Shown: positions 2,864 through 61,861 of the stretch, piece by piece
Layout of the letters: every line of letters starts with the position of its first letter
Numbering within the stretch: the first letter of the stretch is position 1
IMG/VR virus record: IMGVR_UViG_3300048996_000137
Span: 627-64,626 of that record
Reading direction: 5' to 3' (one strand)
Length of the DNA: 64,000 nucleotides
Source: a virus
Taxonomy: Duplodnaviria; Caudoviricetes
Translations under genes and position numbers: made by a program
The notes under the pieces: model-generated
Database searches by the model: none
What the model saw: only the letters and a program-made list of their open reading frames with translations
What the model was told of the DNA's origin: nothing

Positions 2864-3382
2864 ATGCGTCCTGCTGACTTTGAGTTCACGCGCGAACCCA
2901 ACGAACAGATCACGAGAATGGTTCTTGCCAGTGGGCTCGCGATCGATCCCCGCTCGCACCGCCGGCAGAGCTGGAAGCTCGAGCCCGTCGAAAACGGGAT
3001 GGGAACGAGCCTCGGACGCTACCTCGTGTGCTGCCCAGGGCTGCACGCGGCGTGGGAATACTGGCTCATCGGTGTGGTCCACTTGCGGGACGAACCCGGT
3101 TTGCCGCCGGCCGACAACCACCACAGCCATGAGTTGATGGTCGCAGCAATCGAACCTCGCGACGGCATTGATCCGGACGTGCGCGAGACGCTGAAGATCA
3201 TGCAGCCGCTCGACGTCGTGCACCAGTTCACGGTCGGCTCAGATGCGATCGCCGTCGGCCTGCTCGACGAGCTCGTGCGCATGGTGTGCCGCTTCGAGCT
3301 GCACCCCGACAGCGACTTTCGATCCACCTGGCCCGGCGCGGTGGACTACGCGTGCACGCTGTTGGGAAAGCTGGCGACATGA
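2864..3382 (+). CDS. Hypothetical phage protein
   Basis: GGAG RBS; HLRD..G.PP and PDSDFR motifs typical of conserved phage hypotheticals. Confidence 0.65.
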   Translation: MRPADFEFTREPNEQITRMVLASGLAIDPRSHRRQSWKLEPVENGMGTSLGRYLVCCPGLHAAWEYWLIGVVHLRDEPGLPPADNHHSHELMVAAIEPRDGIDPDVRETLKIMQPLDVVHQFTVGSDAIAVGLLDELVRMVCRFELHPDSDFRSTWPGAVDYACTLLGKLAT

Positions 3383-5121: not shown

Positions 5122-5690
5122 GCAATCTTGGTGACCTTCGCCACTGCGTCCTCGAGCTGGATCTGATCGCCGTCGGTGGACCCGGTCGCACCGTGCAGCT
5201 GCATTTTGAAGTGACACGCGCCCGCAGACAGCGCGGAGACCGCGATCCGCACCCACAAGTGCAGGATCACCGGCACGACTGCTGCCGGAAGCGTGATGCC
5301 GGTCGAGCTGCCCGTCGAAGCCGTGGAACCGACGCGCGGCGTGCTCGCGCCGAAGTCGTAACCCCAGAAGTCGCCGAGCCATGTCATCGCGCCAGAAAGC
5401 ACGGCCGGTGCGACCACGCAGCGCGCGGTCGTGTGCGACGGGTTGCGAATCGCGCGTCCCGTCAGCTCCAGCAAGTAGATGCCCGTCGATGAGACGGAGA
5501 GATCCGTCAAGCCGGGTATGTCCGCCGGCGTGGGGTACGTTGCGATCGCGGACCCGGACTGCGCTGCCGTGAGTGGTGCCGCGGCCGCCGCCGCCAAAAT
5601 GCTGGCGAGCACACTCTCAGAAACGCCGTACAAGCCGTCGTCATCTTTCTCGAGCGTGTCGTTGAGTCTCGTGCTCAGTGGAATGCCCAT
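5118..5690 (-). CDS. Putative tail-associated structural protein
   Basis: Beta-rich ORF in tail fibre region. Confidence 0.5.
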   Translation of the reverse strand: MGIPLSTRLNDTLEKDDDGLYGVSESVLASILAAAAAAPLTAAQSGSAIATYPTPADIPGLTDLSVSSTGIYLLELTGRAIRNPSHTTARCVVAPAVLSGAMTWLGDFWGYDFGASTPRVGSTASTGSSTGITLPAAVVPVILHLWVRIAVSALSAGACHFKMQLHGATGSTDGDQIQLEDAVAKVTKIA

Positions 5691-5696
5691 GTTTTT

Positions 5697-6332
5697 TTAC
5701 CCATCGACGAGAAAGTCATCGTCGTGCGTGAGCGGCTCCTCGCTGTCGTCGTCCACGAGCGCTTCGGCAGGCACCGCCTCGAAGCGCGTGCGCGCGATCC
5801 AGCGCTGATCGGTCGGGTCCAAGAGCAGAGCCGCGGCCGACTGCGGCGCAACGGCACTCATGACCGAGCGCACCGAGCCCGCGACGACAGCGCCCTGGGG
5901 CGAGCTCAGCGAGACGTTGCTCGGGCCGTGGTTGATGATCGCCTTGCGCACGGCTGCCGCCGTCGGCGGCAGCCCGGTAATCACGATGATGTCGTCGGGG
6001 TTCGCGAGCGCAGTCTTGAGCTCAATGACTGACGCACTAGAAAAGTCGGCTCCGCGCCCGAACCAGTCGCCGGCGGTCATATCGTAGACGCGGTAGGCGA
6101 AGTCTCCACCGTCGCCACTGATCAGGATCGAACTCGACCAATCGCCGTCGCCGATCGTGGCGCTGAGCCGCGTGACGACGCCGGGCACGCCGCCGGGCAC
6201 GACGCGGGTGCGCTTACCGTCGTCGACAACGTCGGCATTCGCAAACGCCAGGCCGTGCCTGCGCGGCAGTGGAGCGCCGTGGTCGCGCAGCTCACACAGG
6301 CCGAGCATGTCGAACACGCTTTGCGTACTCAC
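5697..6332 (-). CDS. Putative tail fibre adaptor protein
   Basis: GTG start coupled to upstream stop; acidic C-terminal L-x-x-D-D repeats. Confidence 0.5.
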   Translation of the reverse strand: MSTQSVFDMLGLCELRDHGAPLPRRHGLAFANADVVDDGKRTRVVPGGVPGVVTRLSATIGDGDWSSSILISGDGGDFAYRVYDMTAGDWFGRGADFSSASVIELKTALANPDDIIVITGLPPTAAAVRKAIINHGPSNVSLSSPQGAVVAGSVRSVMSAVAPQSAAALLLDPTDQRWIARTRFEAVPAEALVDDDSEEPLTHDDDFLVDG

Positions 6333-39333: not shown

Positions 39334-39564
39334 ATGGACCAAAACCCTACAGACGACGAAGACCACGTGCCGACGGGCCCAAGCGCAGCGCTGCTCGGTC
39401 TCGACGGCGAAGACCTGTTCACCGAGATCGTCGAGCTCGTGCGCGACAAGGACGCGTGGCTCGCGTTCATCGCGAGCAAAGAAGCCGAAATCCGCGCGAT
39501 GGCGCTCGATGACGAGGCCGCGGAGCTGATTTTGCGACGGTTGCGCGGCGAAACGGACGAGTGA
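39334..39564 (+). CDS. Acidic hypothetical protein
   Basis: Coupled to next ORF. Confidence 0.5.
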   Translation: MDQNPTDDEDHVPTGPSAALLGLDGEDLFTEIVELVRDKDAWLAFIASKEAEIRAMALDDEAAELILRRLRGETDE

Positions 39565-39986
39565 TGGTCCGCAAGCGCAAACGAGGCCGTGTGGTCAAAG
39601 CTGTGCCGCCCGAGCTCGCGCTGCCGACGCCGGTCTCGCCCCTGGTCGCGATCGGCATGGCCGACCACCTCGGCAAGTTCATGGCGCTGCCGTCGCGCAT
39701 CCGGACCGCCGGCGAGCTCGTCCACGAAGCCGACGTCGGCGACGTCTCCGTGAGCGGAACCCGCAACGCACTCAAGCTCGCGAAGGCGTTGCTCGAGCAA
39801 GCGGCGCGCGACGTGGACAAGCGGCTGGCCACGCTCGAAGAGAAGCTCGAGCGCGCCGTCAACGAAAAACTGACGAGCGTCGAAACGACCGCGACAAACG
39901 ACGCCGCGCGGCAAAATTCAAAAGCGAAAGCGAAACCCCTTCGGGGTTCGAAGGGGAAGAGGGGCCGGGGGCGCGAGCCGTTCTGA
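39561..39986 (+). CDS. Hypothetical coiled-coil protein
   Basis: Coupled ORF. Confidence 0.55.
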   Translation: MMVRKRKRGRVVKAVPPELALPTPVSPLVAIGMADHLGKFMALPSRIRTAGELVHEADVGDVSVSGTRNALKLAKALLEQAARDVDKRLATLEEKLERAVNEKLTSVETTATNDAARQNSKAKAKPLRGSKGKRGRGREPF

Positions 39987-40057
39987 AGCCGGAAAACTCC
40001 CGCACTCTGCACGGACGTTTGCGCGAGTTTCGCGCGTTGGTATGCTCGCCGGCCGAG

Positions 40058-40477
40058 ATGGCGAACACGCGACCCGTCACCTACACGACCCGCGTCTCGG
40101 TCCCGATCACGGCCGGACACCGCGAGGCGCTGCGACAGTGGTGCTCCGAACACGACACCGGCATGGGAATGCTGCTGCGCGAGAGCGCGCTCGAGTTCAT
40201 CGGACGCGCGGACCTGAGCCGCGCCGGCGACGCCCCGCCCATCACGGTCGGTCAGATGCTGCAGCGCCAGCCGTACACCCGGCAGGCCAAGCGCCACGGC
40301 CCCCGAATCGTCGTGCACTTCACGAAGCAGCAGCGCGCCGCGCTCGAGCACGCCGCGCTCGAGCGGAACGTGTCGCTCGCCAGCCTCATCCGAGACGCCT
40401 CGCTCGCCGCCATCGGCCTCAAGCCCGCGCCGCCCCTCGGGCGTGGTCGCCCGCTCGGCAGCCGGGCCGCCTCCTGA
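40058..40477 (+). CDS. Tandem ribbon-helix-helix DNA-binding protein
   Basis: Two RHH-like units: RVSVPIT....AL...LLRE.AL..IG and RIVVHFT....AL..AA....SLASLIRD..L..IG. Confidence 0.7.
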   Translation: MANTRPVTYTTRVSVPITAGHREALRQWCSEHDTGMGMLLRESALEFIGRADLSRAGDAPPITVGQMLQRQPYTRQAKRHGPRIVVHFTKQQRAALEHAALERNVSLASLIRDASLAAIGLKPAPPLGRGRPLGSRAAS

Positions 40478-40812
40478 GCTCTGTGTGTGTGGCAGGCCCT
40501 CCCTGTTGTGGGGGGCGCTCCCCCCAGTGAGGGGTGCAAGTGGCCTTGCAGACAGGCCCCAGGCCCCCCCAGGGCCCCAGGCCCCTCAGGCCCCCCAGGC
40601 AGGCCCCAGGGCCCTCAGGCCCCAGGCAGGGCCCCAGGCAGGCCCCAGGGGGCCCTGTTGACACCATCCCAGGACCATGCCAGCATACCAACTCCCCCCT
40701 CACTGGGGGGCGCAAGGGGCCCCTCAGGGGGCCTGGAATGCTCCCACATGCCCCCTCCTGAGGGGGGCCAGCTGGACAGCTGCCTAGGCCCCCCACAGGG
40801 GGGAAACCTGGC
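40478..40812. repeat. CpG-depleted non-coding island with CAGG/C-run repeats and 15-bp inverted repeat
   Basis: Only two CG dinucleotides seen; AGGCCCC-type repeats 40554-40650; IR 40520-40534/40696-40710. Confidence 0.85.
40658..40686 (+). promoter_or_regulatory. Candidate sigma70-type early promoter
   Basis: TTGACA-N17-CAGCAT upstream of early operon. Confidence 0.5.
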
Positions 40813-40935
40813 GCCGTTCTCTGAAAACTGAATCAGCCCAGACAGCTCGACGCCCCCTGGGGGGGCTCCTAGCCGGTCTCGTTCAACGCCGCGCAACACG
40901 CGCGGCGTTGATAAGGCCGGAATAGGAGCATACCA

Positions 40936-41322
40936 ATGTCGTCGAAGCATCATCAGCACCAACAGAGTCGGCAGCAGCCGGCTCAGCCTGCCGCAACGAC
41001 GGTCGTCGCAATCGCGCCGCCTGCCGCTGCACCGGGGGCCAAGCCTGTAGAGGCAACGCCGCCGGCGGAGGCCAAACCTGAAGCCAAGCCAGAAGCGAAG
41101 CCGGAGGGGAAGCCTGCGAAGCGGGCCGTGGTGCTGGGGGAACACGAGACGAAGATGCTGGAGATCAATCCCAACGACATCCTGTTGTTGGTCAAGAGCT
41201 ACGCGTTGACGCTCGGGTGCACTGCAGACCAGATCGCGGCGATCAACGCCGCACTGGTCAAAAAGCACGGCGACGCACTGGAAGCGATCGCTGCGGTGTT
41301 TCCCCCAGTACCTGCGGACTGA
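40936..41322 (+). CDS. Early hypothetical protein with PEAK repeats
   Basis: AGGAG RBS. Confidence 0.7.
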   Translation: MSSKHHQHQQSRQQPAQPAATTVVAIAPPAAAPGAKPVEATPPAEAKPEAKPEAKPEGKPAKRAVVLGEHETKMLEINPNDILLLVKSYALTLGCTADQIAAINAALVKKHGDALEAIAAVFPPVPAD

Positions 41323-41435
41323 CATCCCTGTGGGGGCGCGCACTGCGCGTGCGCGCTCCCCACGCCCCACGCCACGAGATGTTTCGTGACGTGAGGCGTG
41401 TGGCGGCAAGTCGCCGCCCACGGGGAGTTGTTCCG

Positions 41436-41669
41436 ATGAAGTACGACGTTGTTGTGCATCGCACCGGTCACGTGTGGCCGGCGCAGACCGAAGCTGAAGC
41501 GATTGCGACTGCTCGCACCGTTTCACGCAACGAGCTCGGCCCAGTGTTCACGTTCGTGAACGGCCAGCAGGATCGCGAGTACACGAACGGCAAGTGCGTG
41601 GCGCGTTACTACCGCCACAGCACCCCGGCGAAGAAAGCGGTCAAGAACCGAAGCCGCAAGGCTGCTTAG
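41436..41669 (+). CDS. Early hypothetical protein
   Basis: GGGAG RBS; MKYDVVV start. Confidence 0.65.
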   Translation: MKYDVVVHRTGHVWPAQTEAEAIATARTVSRNELGPVFTFVNGQQDREYTNGKCVARYYRHSTPAKKAVKNRSRKAA

Positions 41670-41771
41670 TCCCGACGGCTTGGCGCGCACGGATGCGCGC
41701 CGCTTGTCGCCAGGCACTCACAACGGTGGGCGCTTGGCGCAAGGCAATCCGCCGAAACGAAAGGGACGTGA

Positions 41772-41972
41772 ATGACTCTGACTCGAGACCAGCTCGAGGC
41801 TGGCAATCACGAATGCGTGCGAGCGCAGTCGTGGTGGGAACACGACGCGCAAGGCATTCCGCTCTGCCGCGTGTGTGACGAGTGCCGCGAAGCAAAGCTG
41901 TCGCGGTACAGGCCGGAGATTCTCACCGGCTACGACCAGAGCGATGTGAACGAGCCGATCGAGGCCGATTGA
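41772..41972 (+). CDS. Small Cys-containing phage protein
   Basis: DAQGIPLCRVC..C...KL..YRPEI. Confidence 0.7.
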   Translation: MTLTRDQLEAGNHECVRAQSWWEHDAQGIPLCRVCDECREAKLSRYRPEILTGYDQSDVNEPIEAD

Positions 41973-42175
41973 TGATCTGGGCGCACCCCTCGCCGAACGT
42001 GTGGACGCACGGTGACTGGAGCATCGAGCGCGTCGGTCATGGCTTCCAAGTCTGGCGCGTGCTCGACCCCAGGACGCGCCTGAGAAAGAAGCGCGGCAGC
42101 TACGCGTCGCTGGACGACGCGAAGCAGGCCGTCGCTGAAATGATCGCGGCGCTCTACGCACTCGGAGAGCCGTGA
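41972..42175 (+). CDS. Early hypothetical protein
   Basis: TGATG coupling; SLDDAKQA. Confidence 0.6.
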   Translation: MIWAHPSPNVWTHGDWSIERVGHGFQVWRVLDPRTRLRKKRGSYASLDDAKQAVAEMIAALYALGEP

Positions 42176-42271
42176 ACGCCCCGCGTACCTCCCGGTACGC
42201 GGCAGCAGCTGACGCATGGCCGCCGTCAGCTGCTGCCGCGTGCTGAACCCAGCACGGGAAAGGAGGCAAAA

Positions 42272-42562
42272 ATGAACTACCGCAAAGTCGCGACCAAGTT
42301 CCCCCTCGGGCGCGTGGTCACGACGCCGAACGCCGCGAACGAGGTCGCTCAACCGACCCTGCTCGCGGCGCTCGCGCGTCATGCCAACGGCGACTGGGGT
42401 GAAGTGCACGCAGACGATGTCGGTGCCAATGACCGCGCGCTCAAGGCTGGCGATCGGCTCCTGTCGGTCTACCCGATCACACCCGAGTCGTCGGAGCGCT
42501 TCTGGATCATCACCGAAGCCGACCGCAGCTCCACCACGATCTTGCTGCCCGAAGACTACTGA
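42272..42562 (+). CDS. Conserved plasmid/phage leading-region protein
   Basis: F.LGR.V.TP.A, RH..GDWG, RLLS.Y, WIITEADRS.TTILLPEDY. Confidence 0.85.
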   Translation: MNYRKVATKFPLGRVVTTPNAANEVAQPTLLAALARHANGDWGEVHADDVGANDRALKAGDRLLSVYPITPESSERFWIITEADRSSTTILLPEDY

Positions 42563-42571
42563 CAGCTGACG

Positions 42572-42675
42572 CACGGGGCGTCGAAACGCGTCCGCCGCAC
42601 AAGCGCGCGATGCCAGCGGCGACGGACGCGTCCGCACGGAATGGACCGTGCGCTGATGAGATGGAGTTCCCCGTG
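42572..42675 (+). ncRNA. Hammerhead ribozyme, type II (copy 1)
   Basis: GTC-GAAA-C stem III (GCGTCCG/CGGACGC) GTC, stem I CGCACGG/CCGTGCG, CTGATGA-GAT; outer stem CACGGGG/CCCCGTG. Confidence 0.88.
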
Positions 42676-43092
42676 TTGATCATTGAAAACCAAAACTACT
42701 TCGAGAAGGTGCTGCGCTTCGCGCGCGCGACCGACCAGTTGCCGAAGCTACTCAAAGAGCTTTGGCGCCTGCACACGTTCGGGCAAGCACGCGAAGTTCC
42801 CGACCAGCCGCCCGCATTCGCCGAGGGCTGCGGACAGTTTCCGCCACCCGAATGGACGAAGTACGGCGACCAAACGCAGTGCTTTCTACACTCGGACTTC
42901 GCGCCGGCGAGCTTTTACTTTGTGCTCGAGAAGGGCGGCCAGCGCTGGTTCAACGGCGGGCTCATCTACCACGGCAAACAAGCGGGCTGGACGATGCCCA
43001 ACGGCCAAGTCATCCCCGAAGGCTTCGGTGTCGAGACCTTCAACGTGCAGCTCGTGAGCTCTCCCGAAAACCCCTGGAGCATCAACACATGA
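42673..43092 (+). CDS. DUF4120-like protein
   Basis: DFAP.SF.F, NGGLIYHG, F.V.L....WSINT. Confidence 0.7.
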   Translation: MLIIENQNYFEKVLRFARATDQLPKLLKELWRLHTFGQAREVPDQPPAFAEGCGQFPPPEWTKYGDQTQCFLHSDFAPASFYFVLEKGGQRWFNGGLIYHGKQAGWTMPNGQVIPEGFGVETFNVQLVSSPENPWSINT

Positions 43093-43262
43093 GCCGGCCC
43101 GACAGCTATCCGGAGCCCACAGACGAAGAGCCGAGCCACGATCAGCTCCAAGAGTGGGTGTGCGACAGCATGTGCGAAGCGACCGACGGTTGCTGCATCG
43201 AACCCGATGGCATCTGCGAGCACGGTCACCCGAGCTGGCTCATTCACTACGGCTTGATCTAG
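43089..43262 (+). CDS. Small Cys/His phage protein
   Basis: CEATDGC.IEPDG.CEHGHPSWL. Confidence 0.75.
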   Translation: MSRPDSYPEPTDEEPSHDQLQEWVCDSMCEATDGCCIEPDGICEHGHPSWLIHYGLI

Positions 43263-43316
43263 GTCGAAACGCGCGGAGCTCCGCGCGTCGCGCCGTATAC
43301 GGCGCCTGATGAGACC
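43262..43316 (+). ncRNA. Hammerhead ribozyme, type II (copy 2)
   Basis: GGTC-GAAA-CGCGCGG agct CCGCGCG-TC-GCGCCG tata CGGCGC-CTGATGA-GACC. Confidence 0.92.
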
Positions 43317-43330
43317 AACGGAGCATACCA

Positions 43331-43573
43331 ATGATGTTACGACGTGACGAATATCTGTACGTGGCCATGCCGAACGACACGCTCGTTCGCGTGGCCGCGA
43401 TTTTCCCGACGGTTGCGGCTGCGAACGCGCACTTGCACGAGCATCCGCACCACATGGTGGCCGCGCGCTTCGAGAAAATGATCGTGCTGTGCGCGGTGCG
43501 CGACTCGGGCTTCCATCCGCCGAGCGAGCTCCTGCGCAAGCGCAAGGCCAAGCGACGCAAGAGCCCCAAGTGA
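43331..43573 (+). CDS. Early hypothetical protein (paralog of 44509..44745)
   Basis: RV.AIF.....AN.H..EH shared with 44509..44745. Confidence 0.65.
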   Translation: MMLRRDEYLYVAMPNDTLVRVAAIFPTVAAANAHLHEHPHHMVAARFEKMIVLCAVRDSGFHPPSELLRKRKAKRRKSPK

Positions 43574-43887
43574 CGACGCACATCACAGACAATCACAAGC
43601 GCGCGCTCGACTGGATCATCGAATGTCCGGACAACGTTGCCCTCGTGTCGTGTTTCGTGGACGGCAAACCGACCGCGGCGATCGTCGCAGTCAGCGACGA
43701 TCGGGCCGGACCCGTGCTGCAAGCGCTGTTCATCGCGCCGACCGACGAGATGGTGCTCACCGAGCACCACGAGGCGCGAACGCCCGCTGAGCAACGTGTC
43801 TGGGAGTTGCTCGAGAAAGCCCAGATGGCCGAGGCGAACATCGAGCCCGACGAGCTCTTGCGCGCGCTGCGAGGAGGTGACTCGTGA
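43570..43887 (+). CDS. Hypothetical protein
   Basis: GTGA coupling; ALVSC..DG.P.A.I. Confidence 0.6.
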   Translation: MTTHITDNHKRALDWIIECPDNVALVSCFVDGKPTAAIVAVSDDRAGPVLQALFIAPTDEMVLTEHHEARTPAEQRVWELLEKAQMAEANIEPDELLRALRGGDS

Positions 43888-44273
43888 CGCCCGAATCGTT
43901 CGGCCACGTCTACTGGCTGCCTCGGCTCGGAAACTGGTCCGACGACAAGTTGCCGCGCCGTCGCGGCAACCTCGTTCTGCAGCGCTGGATCTGCGCCGGC
44001 AAACACCATCGTCCGATGGTCGTTCGCGAGAGCGTGCTGCGCGCGGTCTTGCGATCGGTGCGCAAGCGCAACCCCTCGGTCGTCGTGCGCTCGCACGCGA
44101 TCGAGGTGCAGTACGACCGGGGCCGCATCTGCCTGCACTTGCACGACGCGACCGAAGTGCTCGGCAAGCTGTTTCACTTTCACCTGCAGCAACAGCCCGC
44201 ACTCACGCCGCCGACCGTCCATCCGCTCGAGCTCGCCGAGGTTGAGGAACTAAAACAAAGGACAACGCCATGA
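43884..44273 (+). CDS. Hypothetical protein
   Basis: GGAGG RBS; coupled. Confidence 0.55.
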   Translation: MTPESFGHVYWLPRLGNWSDDKLPRRRGNLVLQRWICAGKHHRPMVVRESVLRAVLRSVRKRNPSVVVRSHAIEVQYDRGRICLHLHDATEVLGKLFHFHLQQQPALTPPTVHPLELAEVEELKQRTTP

Positions 44274-44512
44274 ACCGTGATTACGAAGACGGCTACATGC
44301 CTCGCTTCGAAGACGACTACGACCCCGACGACTACGACCCCGAGTTCGCGCACCCCGGCGGCGAAAGCGCGCTGCGCGCAGCAGGCCCCGACAACCCGCG
44401 CAACCTCCCATGCCCCAACTGCGGCGAGCCCGATCGGCTCACGCCCAAGGACAGGTCGCTCGGCTATCAGTGCGATGCGTGTGCGCGCGCGGCTGAAGGC
44501 TGGGGACCGTGA
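44270..44512 (+). CDS. Small Zn-ribbon phage protein
   Basis: PGG.SALRAA...NPRNLPCP.CG...RLT..D...GYQCD.CA. Confidence 0.75.
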   Translation: MNRDYEDGYMPRFEDDYDPDDYDPEFAHPGGESALRAAGPDNPRNLPCPNCGEPDRLTPKDRSLGYQCDACARAAEGWGP

Positions 44513-44745
44513 CAACGCTCCTCGGCCACGAGATCTACATCCGCTCCGGCCTCGGGCGCATGCTGCGCGTCACCGCGATCTTCACCGACGCCGAGCAAGC
44601 CAACGAGCACATGCTCGAGCACGCCGGTCAAAGCGTCATCGCAGTGATCGGCCCAACCTCCGACCCCGCGTTCATCCTGCTCGCCGAGGTGGCTGACAAG
44701 GGCTTCGCGCTCCGCCGGCCTGCAGTGGACACAACGCCCAAATAG
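44509..44745 (+). CDS. Early hypothetical protein (paralog of 43331..43573)
   Basis: LRVTAIFTDAEQANEHMLEH. Confidence 0.65.
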   Translation: MTTLLGHEIYIRSGLGRMLRVTAIFTDAEQANEHMLEHAGQSVIAVIGPTSDPAFILLAEVADKGFALRRPAVDTTPK

Positions 44746-44794
44746 AGCATACCATTCGCCCTCACCCACACCCCCCAAGGAGCACGGTCCAAAC

Positions 44795-45238
44795 ATGCTC
44801 TACTCGATTGGATATTCAGGGCTGAGCCCTCAGGAGCTCAAGCGCATGCTCGATCGGCTCGGCGTCGATGTACTCGTCGATGTTCGTGCCAAGCCGATGT
44901 CGCGCAAGCCCGGGTTCAGCAAAAAGGCGCTGCAGACTCAGCTCGGCGCGCGCTACGCATGGCATGGCGATGTGCTCGGTGGTCCAGGCGGCGGCGGCGC
45001 CGTGCAACCGCGCGGCCTCGCACTGCTCAAGCGTCTTCACGACTCCGGCAAGACCGTCATGATCATGTGCCTCGAACACAAACCTGAGCACTGCCATCGC
45101 CACACCGACATCGCGGCCAAGCTCTTGCCCGCGATCGAGGTCGAGCACGTGTTCGAAGACTCGATCGTGCTTGCGAGCGAGCTGCAGCACGCGCTCGACA
45201 CCGACGTCGCTGCGAAGCTCTACGACTTGCCGGAGTGA
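44795..45238 (+). CDS. DUF488 family protein
   Basis: YSIGY, LVDVR..P.SR.PGFSK, LGG, MC.E..P..CHR. Confidence 0.9.
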   Translation: MLYSIGYSGLSPQELKRMLDRLGVDVLVDVRAKPMSRKPGFSKKALQTQLGARYAWHGDVLGGPGGGGAVQPRGLALLKRLHDSGKTVMIMCLEHKPEHCHRHTDIAAKLLPAIEVEHVFEDSIVLASELQHALDTDVAAKLYDLPE

Positions 45239-45537
45239 ATCGAACTGCTGCAAGATTCGATAAGATGAAACGCGTTTACAAATACCAGCTCGGCATGCGC
45301 GGCACGTCGCAAATCATCGACATGCCCGCCGGCGCCGAGCTGCTAGCGGTTCAAGTGCAACACGATGTGCCGTGCATCTGGGCGCTGGTGAACCTCGACA
45401 ATCCGATGACGCAACGAGAGTTCCTGATCGTCGGCACCGGGCACAATCTTCCCGAGCGTTACGGCGGACACGTCGGCACGTTTCAGCTGGACGGCGGCAG
45501 CTTTGTCTTTCACGTGTTCGAGTGTTCGAGGTTGTGA
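45235..45537 (+). CDS. Conserved phage hypothetical protein
   Basis: VYKY.L, MP.GA..L.VQ.Q...IWALV, GTGH, GTFQ...FVFHVFE. Confidence 0.75.
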   Translation: MNRTAARFDKMKRVYKYQLGMRGTSQIIDMPAGAELLAVQVQHDVPCIWALVNLDNPMTQREFLIVGTGHNLPERYGGHVGTFQLDGGSFVFHVFECSRL

Positions 45538-45541
45538 TGAG

Positions 45542-45760
45542 CTACTCGGGCAACCCCGCGATCACCTCGTCGGCGGCATGCGGGAATGCATGCCGCAGCT
45601 GATCGCGACACGTGTAGTAATACCGACCACGCTGCGTGCACGCGCCCTCGCGCTTGAGCCAGCGGCGCACGCGCCAACTTGGCCAGCCGAGCACCTCCGC
45701 CACTTCGGCGATGGTCCATACCACCCGCCCCGGCGGCGCTGCGTTGACTCCCCTGCGCAT
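45542..45760 (-). CDS. Excisionase/MerR-like HTH protein
   Basis: WTIAEVAEVLGW....VRRWL. Confidence 0.65.
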   Translation of the reverse strand: MRRGVNAAPPGRVVWTIAEVAEVLGWPSWRVRRWLKREGACTQRGRYYYTCRDQLRHAFPHAADEVIAGLPE

Positions 45761-45846
45761 GGCGGCGTAGTCTCCGGCCTACCTGTTCGGGGTTAGCCCT
45801 CGGTCGCAAGTGCTCGGCACTACGGCCGGGGGTTTTGCGTTTCTAC

Positions 45847-46491
45847 TCACGCCGCGATGCGGCCGCCGGCGACGGCTCGCCACGCACCGCGCGCCTGCCG
45901 CTCGAGCAGCTTCGCTTGCGCCGCGCAGTACGCGAGCGCTTGGCCGCGCTCGCGCCGCGGCTGCGCGCGCTGCACCTTCACGATCACTTCGATCTGCTCC
46001 TCGTCGCTGAGCTCGAGCCGCGAATCCTTGCGCGCCTTGGCGATGAGCGCGCGGCCCTTCACCGTGACGTGAAAGAGTGCGCCTTGCCGTCCGTACGGCT
46101 GATCGAGTCCGTCTTGCGTGGCCCAGCGCTGGCCCATGTCGCCGTACCAGAGCTCGAGCACGAGCACGCTGATCGGGCTGAGGCGCTCGAGCCGTTTCAG
46201 CTTCGCGCTGACGGTCGCGTACGTTTCCATCTGCGCTTCGTTCGGCACGTAGCCGCCGATGCTCCGCAGCTCGGCCGTCGGTCGTGCATCGAGCACGTCT
46301 CGCCAACCGATCACTTGCCCGTGCTTGCCGAACACCGGCGCGCGCTCGACCGCGTACTCGCGAGCGATCGAGTACATCTCTGCGCGCTCGAACATGCCGC
46401 CGCTTGTACTGCGCTCAAATGCCGTCTGACCACGTGAGAAAAACCACTCCAAATGCTGCTCGTCTTGGACTGAGATCGGCTCATCGCGCAT
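45847..46491 (-). CDS. Hypothetical protein (late regulator position)
   Basis: End of replication operon; VLELWYG motif. Confidence 0.55.
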   Translation of the reverse strand: MRDEPISVQDEQHLEWFFSRGQTAFERSTSGGMFERAEMYSIAREYAVERAPVFGKHGQVIGWRDVLDARPTAELRSIGGYVPNEAQMETYATVSAKLKRLERLSPISVLVLELWYGDMGQRWATQDGLDQPYGRQGALFHVTVKGRALIAKARKDSRLELSDEEQIEVIVKVQRAQPRRERGQALAYCAAQAKLLERQARGAWRAVAGGRIAA

Positions 46492-61622: not shown

Positions 61623-61861
61623 AACTCGATGAAAGCAGTGCGGACCTCGTCAGCGTCGGCTTGGCCGTTGCGGTCTCGCTGCACATCACGGGCCGCGACG
61701 ACGTGCTCCGGCGCTTGAAAAACCGCAGCTTTCGGCTGCGTGCGTGCGAGCTTATCCTCGAGCAGCTGCGCAAGGAGCTCGCGGACGTGGCGTGGCAACC
61801 GCCGCCCGACTCCGAATACCGCGAGCTGCTCGACAAGATCATCGCGGCCGCGCACGACTGA
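61619..61861 (+). CDS. Small hypothetical protein
   Basis: Coupled ORF. Confidence 0.55.
   Translation: MKLDESSADLVSVGLAVAVSLHITGRDDVLRRLKNRSFRLRACELILEQLRKELADVAWQPPPDSEYRELLDKIIAAAHD

Follow-up and report, generated by a model that had tools for sequence, protein, structure and literature searches.

The locus described here raises the question of what two self-cleaving ribozymes do inside a row of small phage genes, when one of them is folded over the start codon of the gene that follows it. According to a 2019 review, the function of bacterial ribozymes, phage hammerheads included, is largely elusive, and the purpose of many hammerheads in phage operons remains unsettled in the review literature. 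The window, i.e., the whole stretch of 64,000 nucleotides that was analysed, covers almost all of a virus record of 64,626 bp, which has direct terminal repeats and is rated complete; the sole sequencing-run sources of this phage are DNA contigs from one soil study. Within the window, a gene row at about 39334-45537 (+) has all its plausible genes on the plus strand, short and tightly packed or overlapping, and is bracketed by converging and diverging minus-strand genes (PAPS-reductase domain and MT-A70). This row carries approximately 17 small phage genes (roughly 39.3-45.5 kb of the window), few of which have a Pfam family, namely DUF4120 (a weak match), DUF488 and DUF7352. Its two largest gaps, 42563-42672 and 43263-43330, are each filled by a type II hammerhead, called here HH-A (42572-42675, +) and HH-B (43262-43316, +). 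The locus is a compact test case, in which two different ribozymes bracket two genes, one of them with a strong start-codon helix, and the possibilities of a mere cutter, a structural clamp and a translation gate should be separable.

The gene upstream of HH-A (42272-42562, +; ORF list) encodes a 96-aa protein of the 'plasmid related protein' type and ends with a TGA stop at 42560-42562, 9 nt ahead of the extended stem of the ribozyme. The protein has no Pfam or PHROG match, and the ESM Atlas gave clusters of 59-233 members with a score of 0.94 and TM values of 0.88-0.89. The first gene between the ribozymes (42673-43092, +; 139 aa) is DUF4120-like (Pfam PF13496, E 1.4e-4); its score of 22.4 bits is below the cut-off of 27, and its homologues P0002-P0004 carry PF13496. 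This gene probably starts at the GTG at 42673, as supported by the alignment, in which the three homologues begin at the corresponding position and the in-frame stretch upstream of the GTG has no counterpart. The second gene (43089-43262, +) encodes a small Cys-rich protein of 57 aa according to its translation; its start overlaps the preceding stop (ATGA), and no Pfam family was assigned to it. The first gene after HH-B (43331-43573, +; ORF list) encodes 80 aa. It is a paralogue of the gene at 44509-44745 (+), with 33% identity over 58 aa in BLASTP (E 4e-7), and a hammerhead precedes only the first of the two.

HH-A is a complete type II hammerhead. Its catalytic unit (42579-42663, +), delimited by Rfam RF02276, by the covariance model R1 described below and by the fold, opens with stem II, in which CGUC (42579-42582) pairs with GAUG (42660-42663). 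The GAAA segment follows at 42583-42586, with G12-A14 at 42583-42585 in sequence and alignments, and leads into a stem III element of 46 nt (42586-42631) and C17 at 42632. Stem I is a hairpin at 42633-42652, in which CGCACGG and CCGUGCG form 7 bp closed by the loop AAUGGA, and it is followed by the C3-A9 segment CUGAUGA at 42653-42659. Beyond stem II, a 5-nt bulge GAGUU (42664-42668) is followed by an extension formed by CACGGGG (42572-42578) and CCCCGUG (42669-42675), the latter strand including the GTG start at 42673-42675. G42571 can add one G-U pair, giving an extension of 8 bp with G-U or of 7 Watson-Crick pairs. The Shine-Dalgarno sequence of the DUF4120-like gene, GGAG (42663-42666), sits 6 nt ahead of the GTG. 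Stem III has 9 bp plus an insert; its 46 nt compare with a median of 21, and a length of at least 45 nt was found in 5 of the 191 viral hammerheads among the matches listed. The insert was also considered as an aptamer, but it had no Rfam match and no relatives.

The minimum free energy (MFE) fold of 42572-42675 was exactly this topology, which was also obtained in 150-nt contexts, as the MFE structure in 42555-42704 and as the centroid in 42530-42679. The MFE z-score of the element was only -1.5, in a G+C-rich genome. In the RF02276 and R1 alignments, position H17 falls on C42632, and the predicted scissile bond thus lies between 42632 and 42633. Cleavage in the hammerhead family leaves a 2',3'-cyclic phosphate and a 5'-OH; the 5' product of HH-A would accordingly carry the cyclic phosphate on C42632, its last nucleotide, while the first nucleotide of the 3' product would be C42633, bearing the 5'-OH. 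The first-pass annotation, which had been made from the sequence, had described an insert in stem III, cleavage after C42632 and an extended stem II that pairs the GTG and brackets the GGAG, and all three elements were recovered here.

HH-B, identified with Rfam, R1 and the fold, has its C17 at 43289, 657 nt downstream of that of HH-A. It consists of stem II (GGUC/GACC), a stem I of 6 bp with the loop UAUA, a stem III of 8-9 bp and CUGAUGA at 43306-43312; a GGAG (43320-43323) and an ATG (43331) are located 3' of it. The TAG stop of the 57-aa gene and stem II have G43262 in common; a ribosome terminating there would thus preclude the HH-B fold, and vice versa. In the MFE structure of its context (43225-43360, +), stem II is lost to another pairing: the CUGAUGAG core pairs with an upstream coding stretch, while the 5' strand of stem II is held in a local hairpin.

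The comparison of the two copies showed that the helices are kept while both sides of several pairs change. The earlier claim of a shared type II topology with different, compensating stems holds, as both copies are complete by sequence and fold, and the compensation concerns the outermost pair of stem II, four pairs of stem III and the whole of stem I. The same is true of the interval between the two cleavage sites, 42633-43289, which is 657 nt long, contains two genes and ends at C17 of HH-B, itself a complete ribozyme. The core defined by Perreault et al. 2011 (PMC3088659) comprises C3 U4 G5 A6 N7 G8 A9, G12 A13 A14, the pair A15.1-U16.1 and H17. HH-A and HH-B both agree with this conserved core at all 13 positions and have the three adjoining pairs intact, which in HH-A are G42660-C42582, C42633-G42652 and A42586-U42631. 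HH-A forms its three helices with no mispair beside the core.

The search with Rfam RF02276 (Hammerhead_II, clan CL00010) scored HH-A at 27.9 bits (E 3.9e-5, calculated for this genome and a single family) and HH-B at 25.6 bits. Both copies are below the gathering cut-off of 37 bits, and Rfam at gathering scores returned nothing over the whole window, the hammerheads surfacing only in E-value mode. In the region 40000-46000, Rfam revealed no other ribozyme classes. A gapped pattern of three short motifs was used to collect at least 120 IMG/VR stretches, and a descriptor applied to these loci yielded 189 hammerheads among the matches listed, which together with the two in the window make 191. 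The covariance model R1 was built from 140 of the 144 distinct hammerheads 48-64 nt long, none of them from the window. With filters off, over the whole window and both strands, R1 scored HH-B at 55.4 bits (E 4.7e-15) and HH-A at 44.6 bits (E 1.3e-11), the independence of the model being limited by the derivation of the fishing pattern from the window's own two copies. The third-best match of R1 in the window reached 14.9 bits and lacked stem III. The descriptor scan of the window likewise gave no further candidate with all three stems; one descriptor candidate, 61653-61733 (-), was rejected, having no hammerhead fold and only 7.4 bits with R1. In the R1 alignment, 96.2% of cells were paired, against 63.9% after shuffling, and double changes occurred in 14 of 16 pairs; these statistics are inflated and partly circular because the descriptor itself demanded paired stems.

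The scores below the Rfam cut-off could be taken to mean that HH-A and HH-B are inactive relics or look-alikes, in which the consensus is present without a useful rate of cleavage and the two gaps are structured spacers. The modest z-score of HH-A, its large stem III insert and the lack of a pseudoknot, discussed below, point in the same direction. To place these scores, RF02276 was applied to ten of the loci. It passed 21 hammerheads, all of them in three arrays with pseudoknots and a stem II of 2-3 bp (11 in L031, 6 in L061 and 4 in L016), and none of the 28 hammerheads in L017, L021, L051, L019, L026, L044 and L123. The latter resemble HH-A and HH-B in having a stem II of 4-5 bp, a 7-bp stem I that is often closed by U-G, and loops of 3-4 nt, and their cores are perfect and their stems covary across many phages. 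As this whole subclass with a 4-bp stem II fails Rfam and yet keeps its cores and covarying stems, the failure points to a blind spot of the model and not to decay. The low Rfam scores of HH-A and HH-B are thus a trait of the subclass, to be explained by the seed of the model and not by the core. With the 13 core positions and adjoining pairs unbroken in both copies and with the strong scores in R1, we consider inactivity very unlikely. It follows that the Rfam model of type II, and hence annotation pipelines, would miss this pseudoknot-less subclass, which is common in viral contigs. Members of it may already be contained in the supplementary alignments of Perreault et al. 2011. One of the viral contigs of the subclass (L026), which has two hammerheads, also passes the Rfam tmRNA cut-off at 6081-6146 (-) with 53.6 bits; this match may be an ssrA-derived attachment site.

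The pseudoknot between loop I and the 3' tail, which is present in the majority of type II hammerheads according to Perreault et al. 2011 (PMC3088659), was sought with a threshold of at least 4 bp, and the best pairing found was 3 bp in both HH-A and HH-B. Among the matches listed, it was detected in 11% of the hammerheads with a stem II of at least 4 bp, against 4% of controls, and in 57% of those with a stem II of at most 3 bp, against 23% of controls. Because of its absence, fast cleavage of HH-A and HH-B at cellular Mg2+ is not assured. In HH-A, a contact between the 6-nt loop I and the 5-nt bulge, which is 4 bp away from the core, might take the place of the pseudoknot.

The surroundings of the two ribozymes are those of the family. 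Among the matches listed, an ORF start (at least 40 codons) preceded by a Shine-Dalgarno sequence lies within 150 nt after CUGAUGA in 180 of 191 cases and within 40 nt in 166, at a median distance of 24 nt; the stop of the upstream ORF overlaps stem II in 50 of 182 cases and is less than 10 nt away in 108. The intergenic arrangement of stop, ribozyme and Shine-Dalgarno sequence is therefore the norm for phage type II hammerheads. At least two hammerheads on the same strand were present in 38 loci, with up to 10 in 3 kb, again among the matches listed. The largest arrays among these matches were L031 (10 copies in 3 kb), L017 (9), L016 (8) and L061 (8), and in the long arrays successive hammerheads were spaced by 250-700 nt, with one at almost every junction between small genes.

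Clustered hammerheads that flank phage genes, their role in mRNA processing and the possible formation of circles were already described by Perreault et al. 2011. According to their account (PMC3088659), hammerheads occur in several copies around individual genes or short gene blocks of prophages, and the identities of these genes vary; long phage transcripts are proposed to be processed into gene-length mRNAs, and cleavage in vitro is reported for three tandem or clustered arrangements. In D. vulgaris, three type II hammerheads near phage-like genes are reported to cleave in vivo. HH-A and HH-B share with the clusters of Perreault et al. 2011 (PMC3088659) an identical core, an open stem II with stems I and III closed by hairpins, the intergenic position in a row of small genes on the same strand, two copies flanking a short block, flanked gene content that is not conserved, and the same proposed role in transcript processing. 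Unlike the clusters as described there, they lack the pseudoknot between loop I and the 3' tail and are below the Rfam gathering cut-off, and HH-A differs in its 4-bp stem II with a clamp of 7-8 bp, its 5-nt bulge and its 46-nt stem III. The pair thus consists of genuine type II hammerheads of the pseudoknot-less subclass in the usual phage setting and adds an example, not a new phenomenon; the clamp that masks the start is the one unusual feature of the locus.

Against this background, the most likely function of HH-A and HH-B, and in our judgement a probable one, is to cut the operon transcript into pieces capped by hairpins. The two ribozymes would be transcribed within one long plus-strand message that spans roughly 39.3-45.5 kb of the window. 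No promoter-like or terminator-like sites were found between HH-A and HH-B or separating nearby genes, and the terminator-like hairpin at 45813-45830, 3' of the gene row, is the only plus-strand site that fits in position. Each ribozyme would fold once its own 3' strand has been made and would cut after its C17 (42632 and 43289, respectively). Each piece of RNA would then carry the stable stem III hairpin with the cyclic phosphate at its 3' end, and the stem I hairpin with a 5'-OH, a few nt before the next Shine-Dalgarno sequence, at its 5' end. In this way, the block of the DUF4120-like and 57-aa genes and its neighbours would likely gain differing stabilities or translation efficiencies.

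Relatives of the locus were sought in several collections. When 41700-44800 was compared by blastn with 50,697 phage records, a single match of 62 nt was obtained. It corresponds to positions 42502-42563 of the window, at the 3' end of the 96-aa gene, and belongs to MT836019.1, an unannotated record from human faeces, with 87% identity. No relatives of the DUF4120-like protein or of its homologue P0002 were found in viral contigs, and tblastn of P0002 against the phage records gave none. Genome contigs provided one distant locus (L122), without a ribozyme, and the metagenome contig L124 had no hammerhead. A second metagenome contig, L123, is a true relative: its DUF4120-like protein is 48% identical to that of the window, and it keeps the gene order of the DUF4120-like gene, DUF488 and a gene that by eye resembles 40936-41322. 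R1 revealed three hammerheads on this contig, at 3090, 3626 and 5445 (44.9-52.7 bits). The hammerhead at 5445-5498 lies directly 3' of the DUF4120-like gene and is the positional equivalent of HH-B, having the stem II of HH-B and a covarying stem I. The 47-nt spacer ahead of the DUF4120-like gene of this contig contains no ribozyme, and none of the 24 viral loci in which the 96-aa protein has a relative carries a hammerhead. HH-A is consequently tied to neither of the neighbouring gene families, and related phages differ in where their ribozymes are placed.

The extended stem II of HH-A suggests an additional role. The GTG at 42673-42675 pairs with CAC (42572-42574), most of the spacer is paired, and GGAG falls in the last pair of stem II and in the bulge; the start and part of the Shine-Dalgarno sequence are therefore enclosed in the ribozyme helix. 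According to this reading, the Shine-Dalgarno sequence and the GTG are locked in an intramolecular stem II of 11-12 bp and translation depends on the activity of the ribozyme: after cleavage the helix would be intermolecular, and a single opening, by breathing, by a helicase or by a ribosome at the upstream stop, would free the start for good. The distance of the start codon from the core agrees with this reading, being 13 nt in HH-A and as short or shorter in only 22 of 180 cases among the matches listed. So does the pairing of the two flanks, which at -17.3 kcal/mol is the strongest of 191 among the matches listed, the next being -14.3 kcal/mol. When the real 5' flank was combined with 3' flanks drawn at random from this genome, a helix of at least 7 bp arose by chance in 2.3% of cases with G-U allowed and in 0.57% with Watson-Crick pairs; with the 5' strand contiguous with stem II, these values were 0.54% and 0.04%, respectively.

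However, the 5' flank of HH-A pairs equally well with 7.7% of random 25-mers when the pairing is unconstrained, in a genome of 68% G+C. Moreover, the evidence for the masking helix comes from one sequence, no relative bearing HH-A having been found in the collections searched, and neither conservation, covariation nor enrichment indicates that selection has kept it. Across the 191 viral type II hammerheads among the matches listed, the pairing of the flanks averaged -6.39 kcal/mol against -6.27 kcal/mol in mismatched controls (p 0.35), and extensions of at least 7 bp occurred in 5 of the 191, about the chance rate. The suggestion in the first-pass annotation that folding or cleavage may gate translation was therefore not upheld as far as a selected gate is concerned: the family shows no enrichment, the DUF4120-like gene of L123 has no ribozyme in front of it, and the loci of the upstream gene have none. 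The extension of HH-A is real and individually unlikely, and nothing shows that selection maintains such helices.

The extension is explained equally well by a structural clamp for the open stem II. The strands of this stem are 77 nt apart because stem III, with its 46 nt, is unusually long, and the clamp may serve to stabilise the fold of the ribozyme and bury the Shine-Dalgarno sequence and the GTG incidentally. A G+C-rich duplex of 11 bp may also stay together after cleavage and release nothing; as the duplex of 11-12 bp would still hold the cleaved products, any release needs an opening event. A ribosome at the stop 42560-42562 would reach only about the foot of the clamp helix, and translational coupling based on melting is not claimed here. 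Dependence of translation on cleavage is, on balance, an unlikely use of HH-A, and the cutting of the transcript is the reading that we prefer.

Switches of this kind have been built artificially. Wieland and Hartig reportedly engineered a hammerhead that masks the Shine-Dalgarno sequence in E. coli in 2008. In the engineered twister switches of E. coli (Felletti et al. 2016, PMC5052635), the Shine-Dalgarno sequence is, as in HH-A, hidden in a helix of the 5' UTR that belongs to a self-cleaving ribozyme, and cleavage raises expression 5- to 100-fold, which demonstrates that the release of a masked Shine-Dalgarno sequence by cleavage works in bacteria. Those switches, as described, are designed and tuned by ligands, with a masking helix made to fall apart after cleavage, whereas the predicted helix of HH-A is natural, G+C-rich and 11-12 bp long. 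Among natural systems, the HHphage hammerhead of the haloviruses HF1 and HF2 (Perreault et al. 2011) is, like HH-A, situated 13 nt upstream of a start codon; it heads early genes, and a 5' end has been mapped close to the site where it cleaves. Unlike HH-A, it has a variant core, depends on high salt and belongs to an archaeal virus, and its description by Perreault et al. 2011 mentions no masking of the start codon.

Cleavage by both ribozymes would release the 657-nt RNA (42633-43289), and its ends could in principle be joined by the reverse hammerhead reaction or by a host ligase of the RtcB type into a circular mRNA resistant to exonucleases. The predicted end chemistry, 5'-OH and cyclic phosphate, is right for such a reaction. 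Stem II is the single open helix of a type II hammerhead, and an excised piece can therefore restore the ribozyme from its two ends when the strands of stem II match; here, the 3' end (5' strand of stem II of HH-B, GAAA and stem III) and the 5' end (stem I of HH-A, CUGAUGA and the 3' strand of stem II) could reassemble. The chimeric stem II of HH-A and HH-B has 3 matching bp (C-G, U-A, G-U) in both the circle and the splice combination, but these 3 bp alone would hold the ends, with no pseudoknot to assist.

The same comparison was made for the arrays of the family. Among the matches listed, the chimeric stem II equalled or exceeded the native one in length in 63% of 84 adjacent pairs, and it had at least 3 bp in 54% of adjacent pairs, against 21% of pairs between loci. 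Excess identity within arrays over that between loci, likewise among the matches listed, was 0.60, 0.33 and 0.64 at positions 10.2-10.4 of stem II, and 0.06-0.49 in stem I and 0.17-0.28 in stem III. Within an array, one strand of stem II can thus often be exchanged for that of a neighbour, as any circle or splice chemistry would require; since stems I and III are also uniform within arrays, to a lesser degree, this may reflect shared descent.

Hammerhead-flanked circular RNAs are known from eukaryotic retrozymes (PMC7229834), and the locus resembles retrozymes and viroid-like RNAs in that two hammerhead cuts would give ends joinable by a tRNA ligase or an enzyme of the RtcB type. Those RNAs, as presented in the same source, are non-coding repeats with identical ribozymes of type I or III in eukaryotes, whereas in the present dsDNA phage a protein-coding piece lies between type II ribozymes that differ from each other, and no circle is known. 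Clustered bacterial hammerheads have been examined once in published work for circles or spliced RNAs, by Perreault et al. 2011 (PMC3088659), who report that none were detected. Circularisation at the HH-A/HH-B locus is accordingly unlikely, and we give the 657-nt circle a very slim chance. Circle or splice chemistry stays a hypothesis for the family, and the predicted contact at HH-A/HH-B is weak. A more far-reaching interpretation, also doubtful, would make HH-A a natural counterpart of the engineered switches, in which cleavage turns an intramolecular lock into an intermolecular one and so licenses translation; in its boldest form, it adds the two-gene circular mRNA formed through matching strands of stem II. 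Simple cutting of the operon transcript is retained as the preferred function.

A further structured region is present ahead of the 96-aa gene, in the gap 42176-42271 (+). It contains three adjacent hairpins, one of them with approximately 15 near-perfect pairs, which are closed by a helix that pairs part of the AGGAGG of the 96-aa gene. Its MFE was -60.7 kcal/mol with a z-score of -6.46, and none of 200 shuffled sequences folded equally well. The region lacks a U-tract and belongs to no Rfam family; the few matches were weak, below threshold and on the minus strand. It could be a processing site of the RNase III type or a stabiliser, and would in that case be a third, non-ribozyme punctuation mark of the operon.
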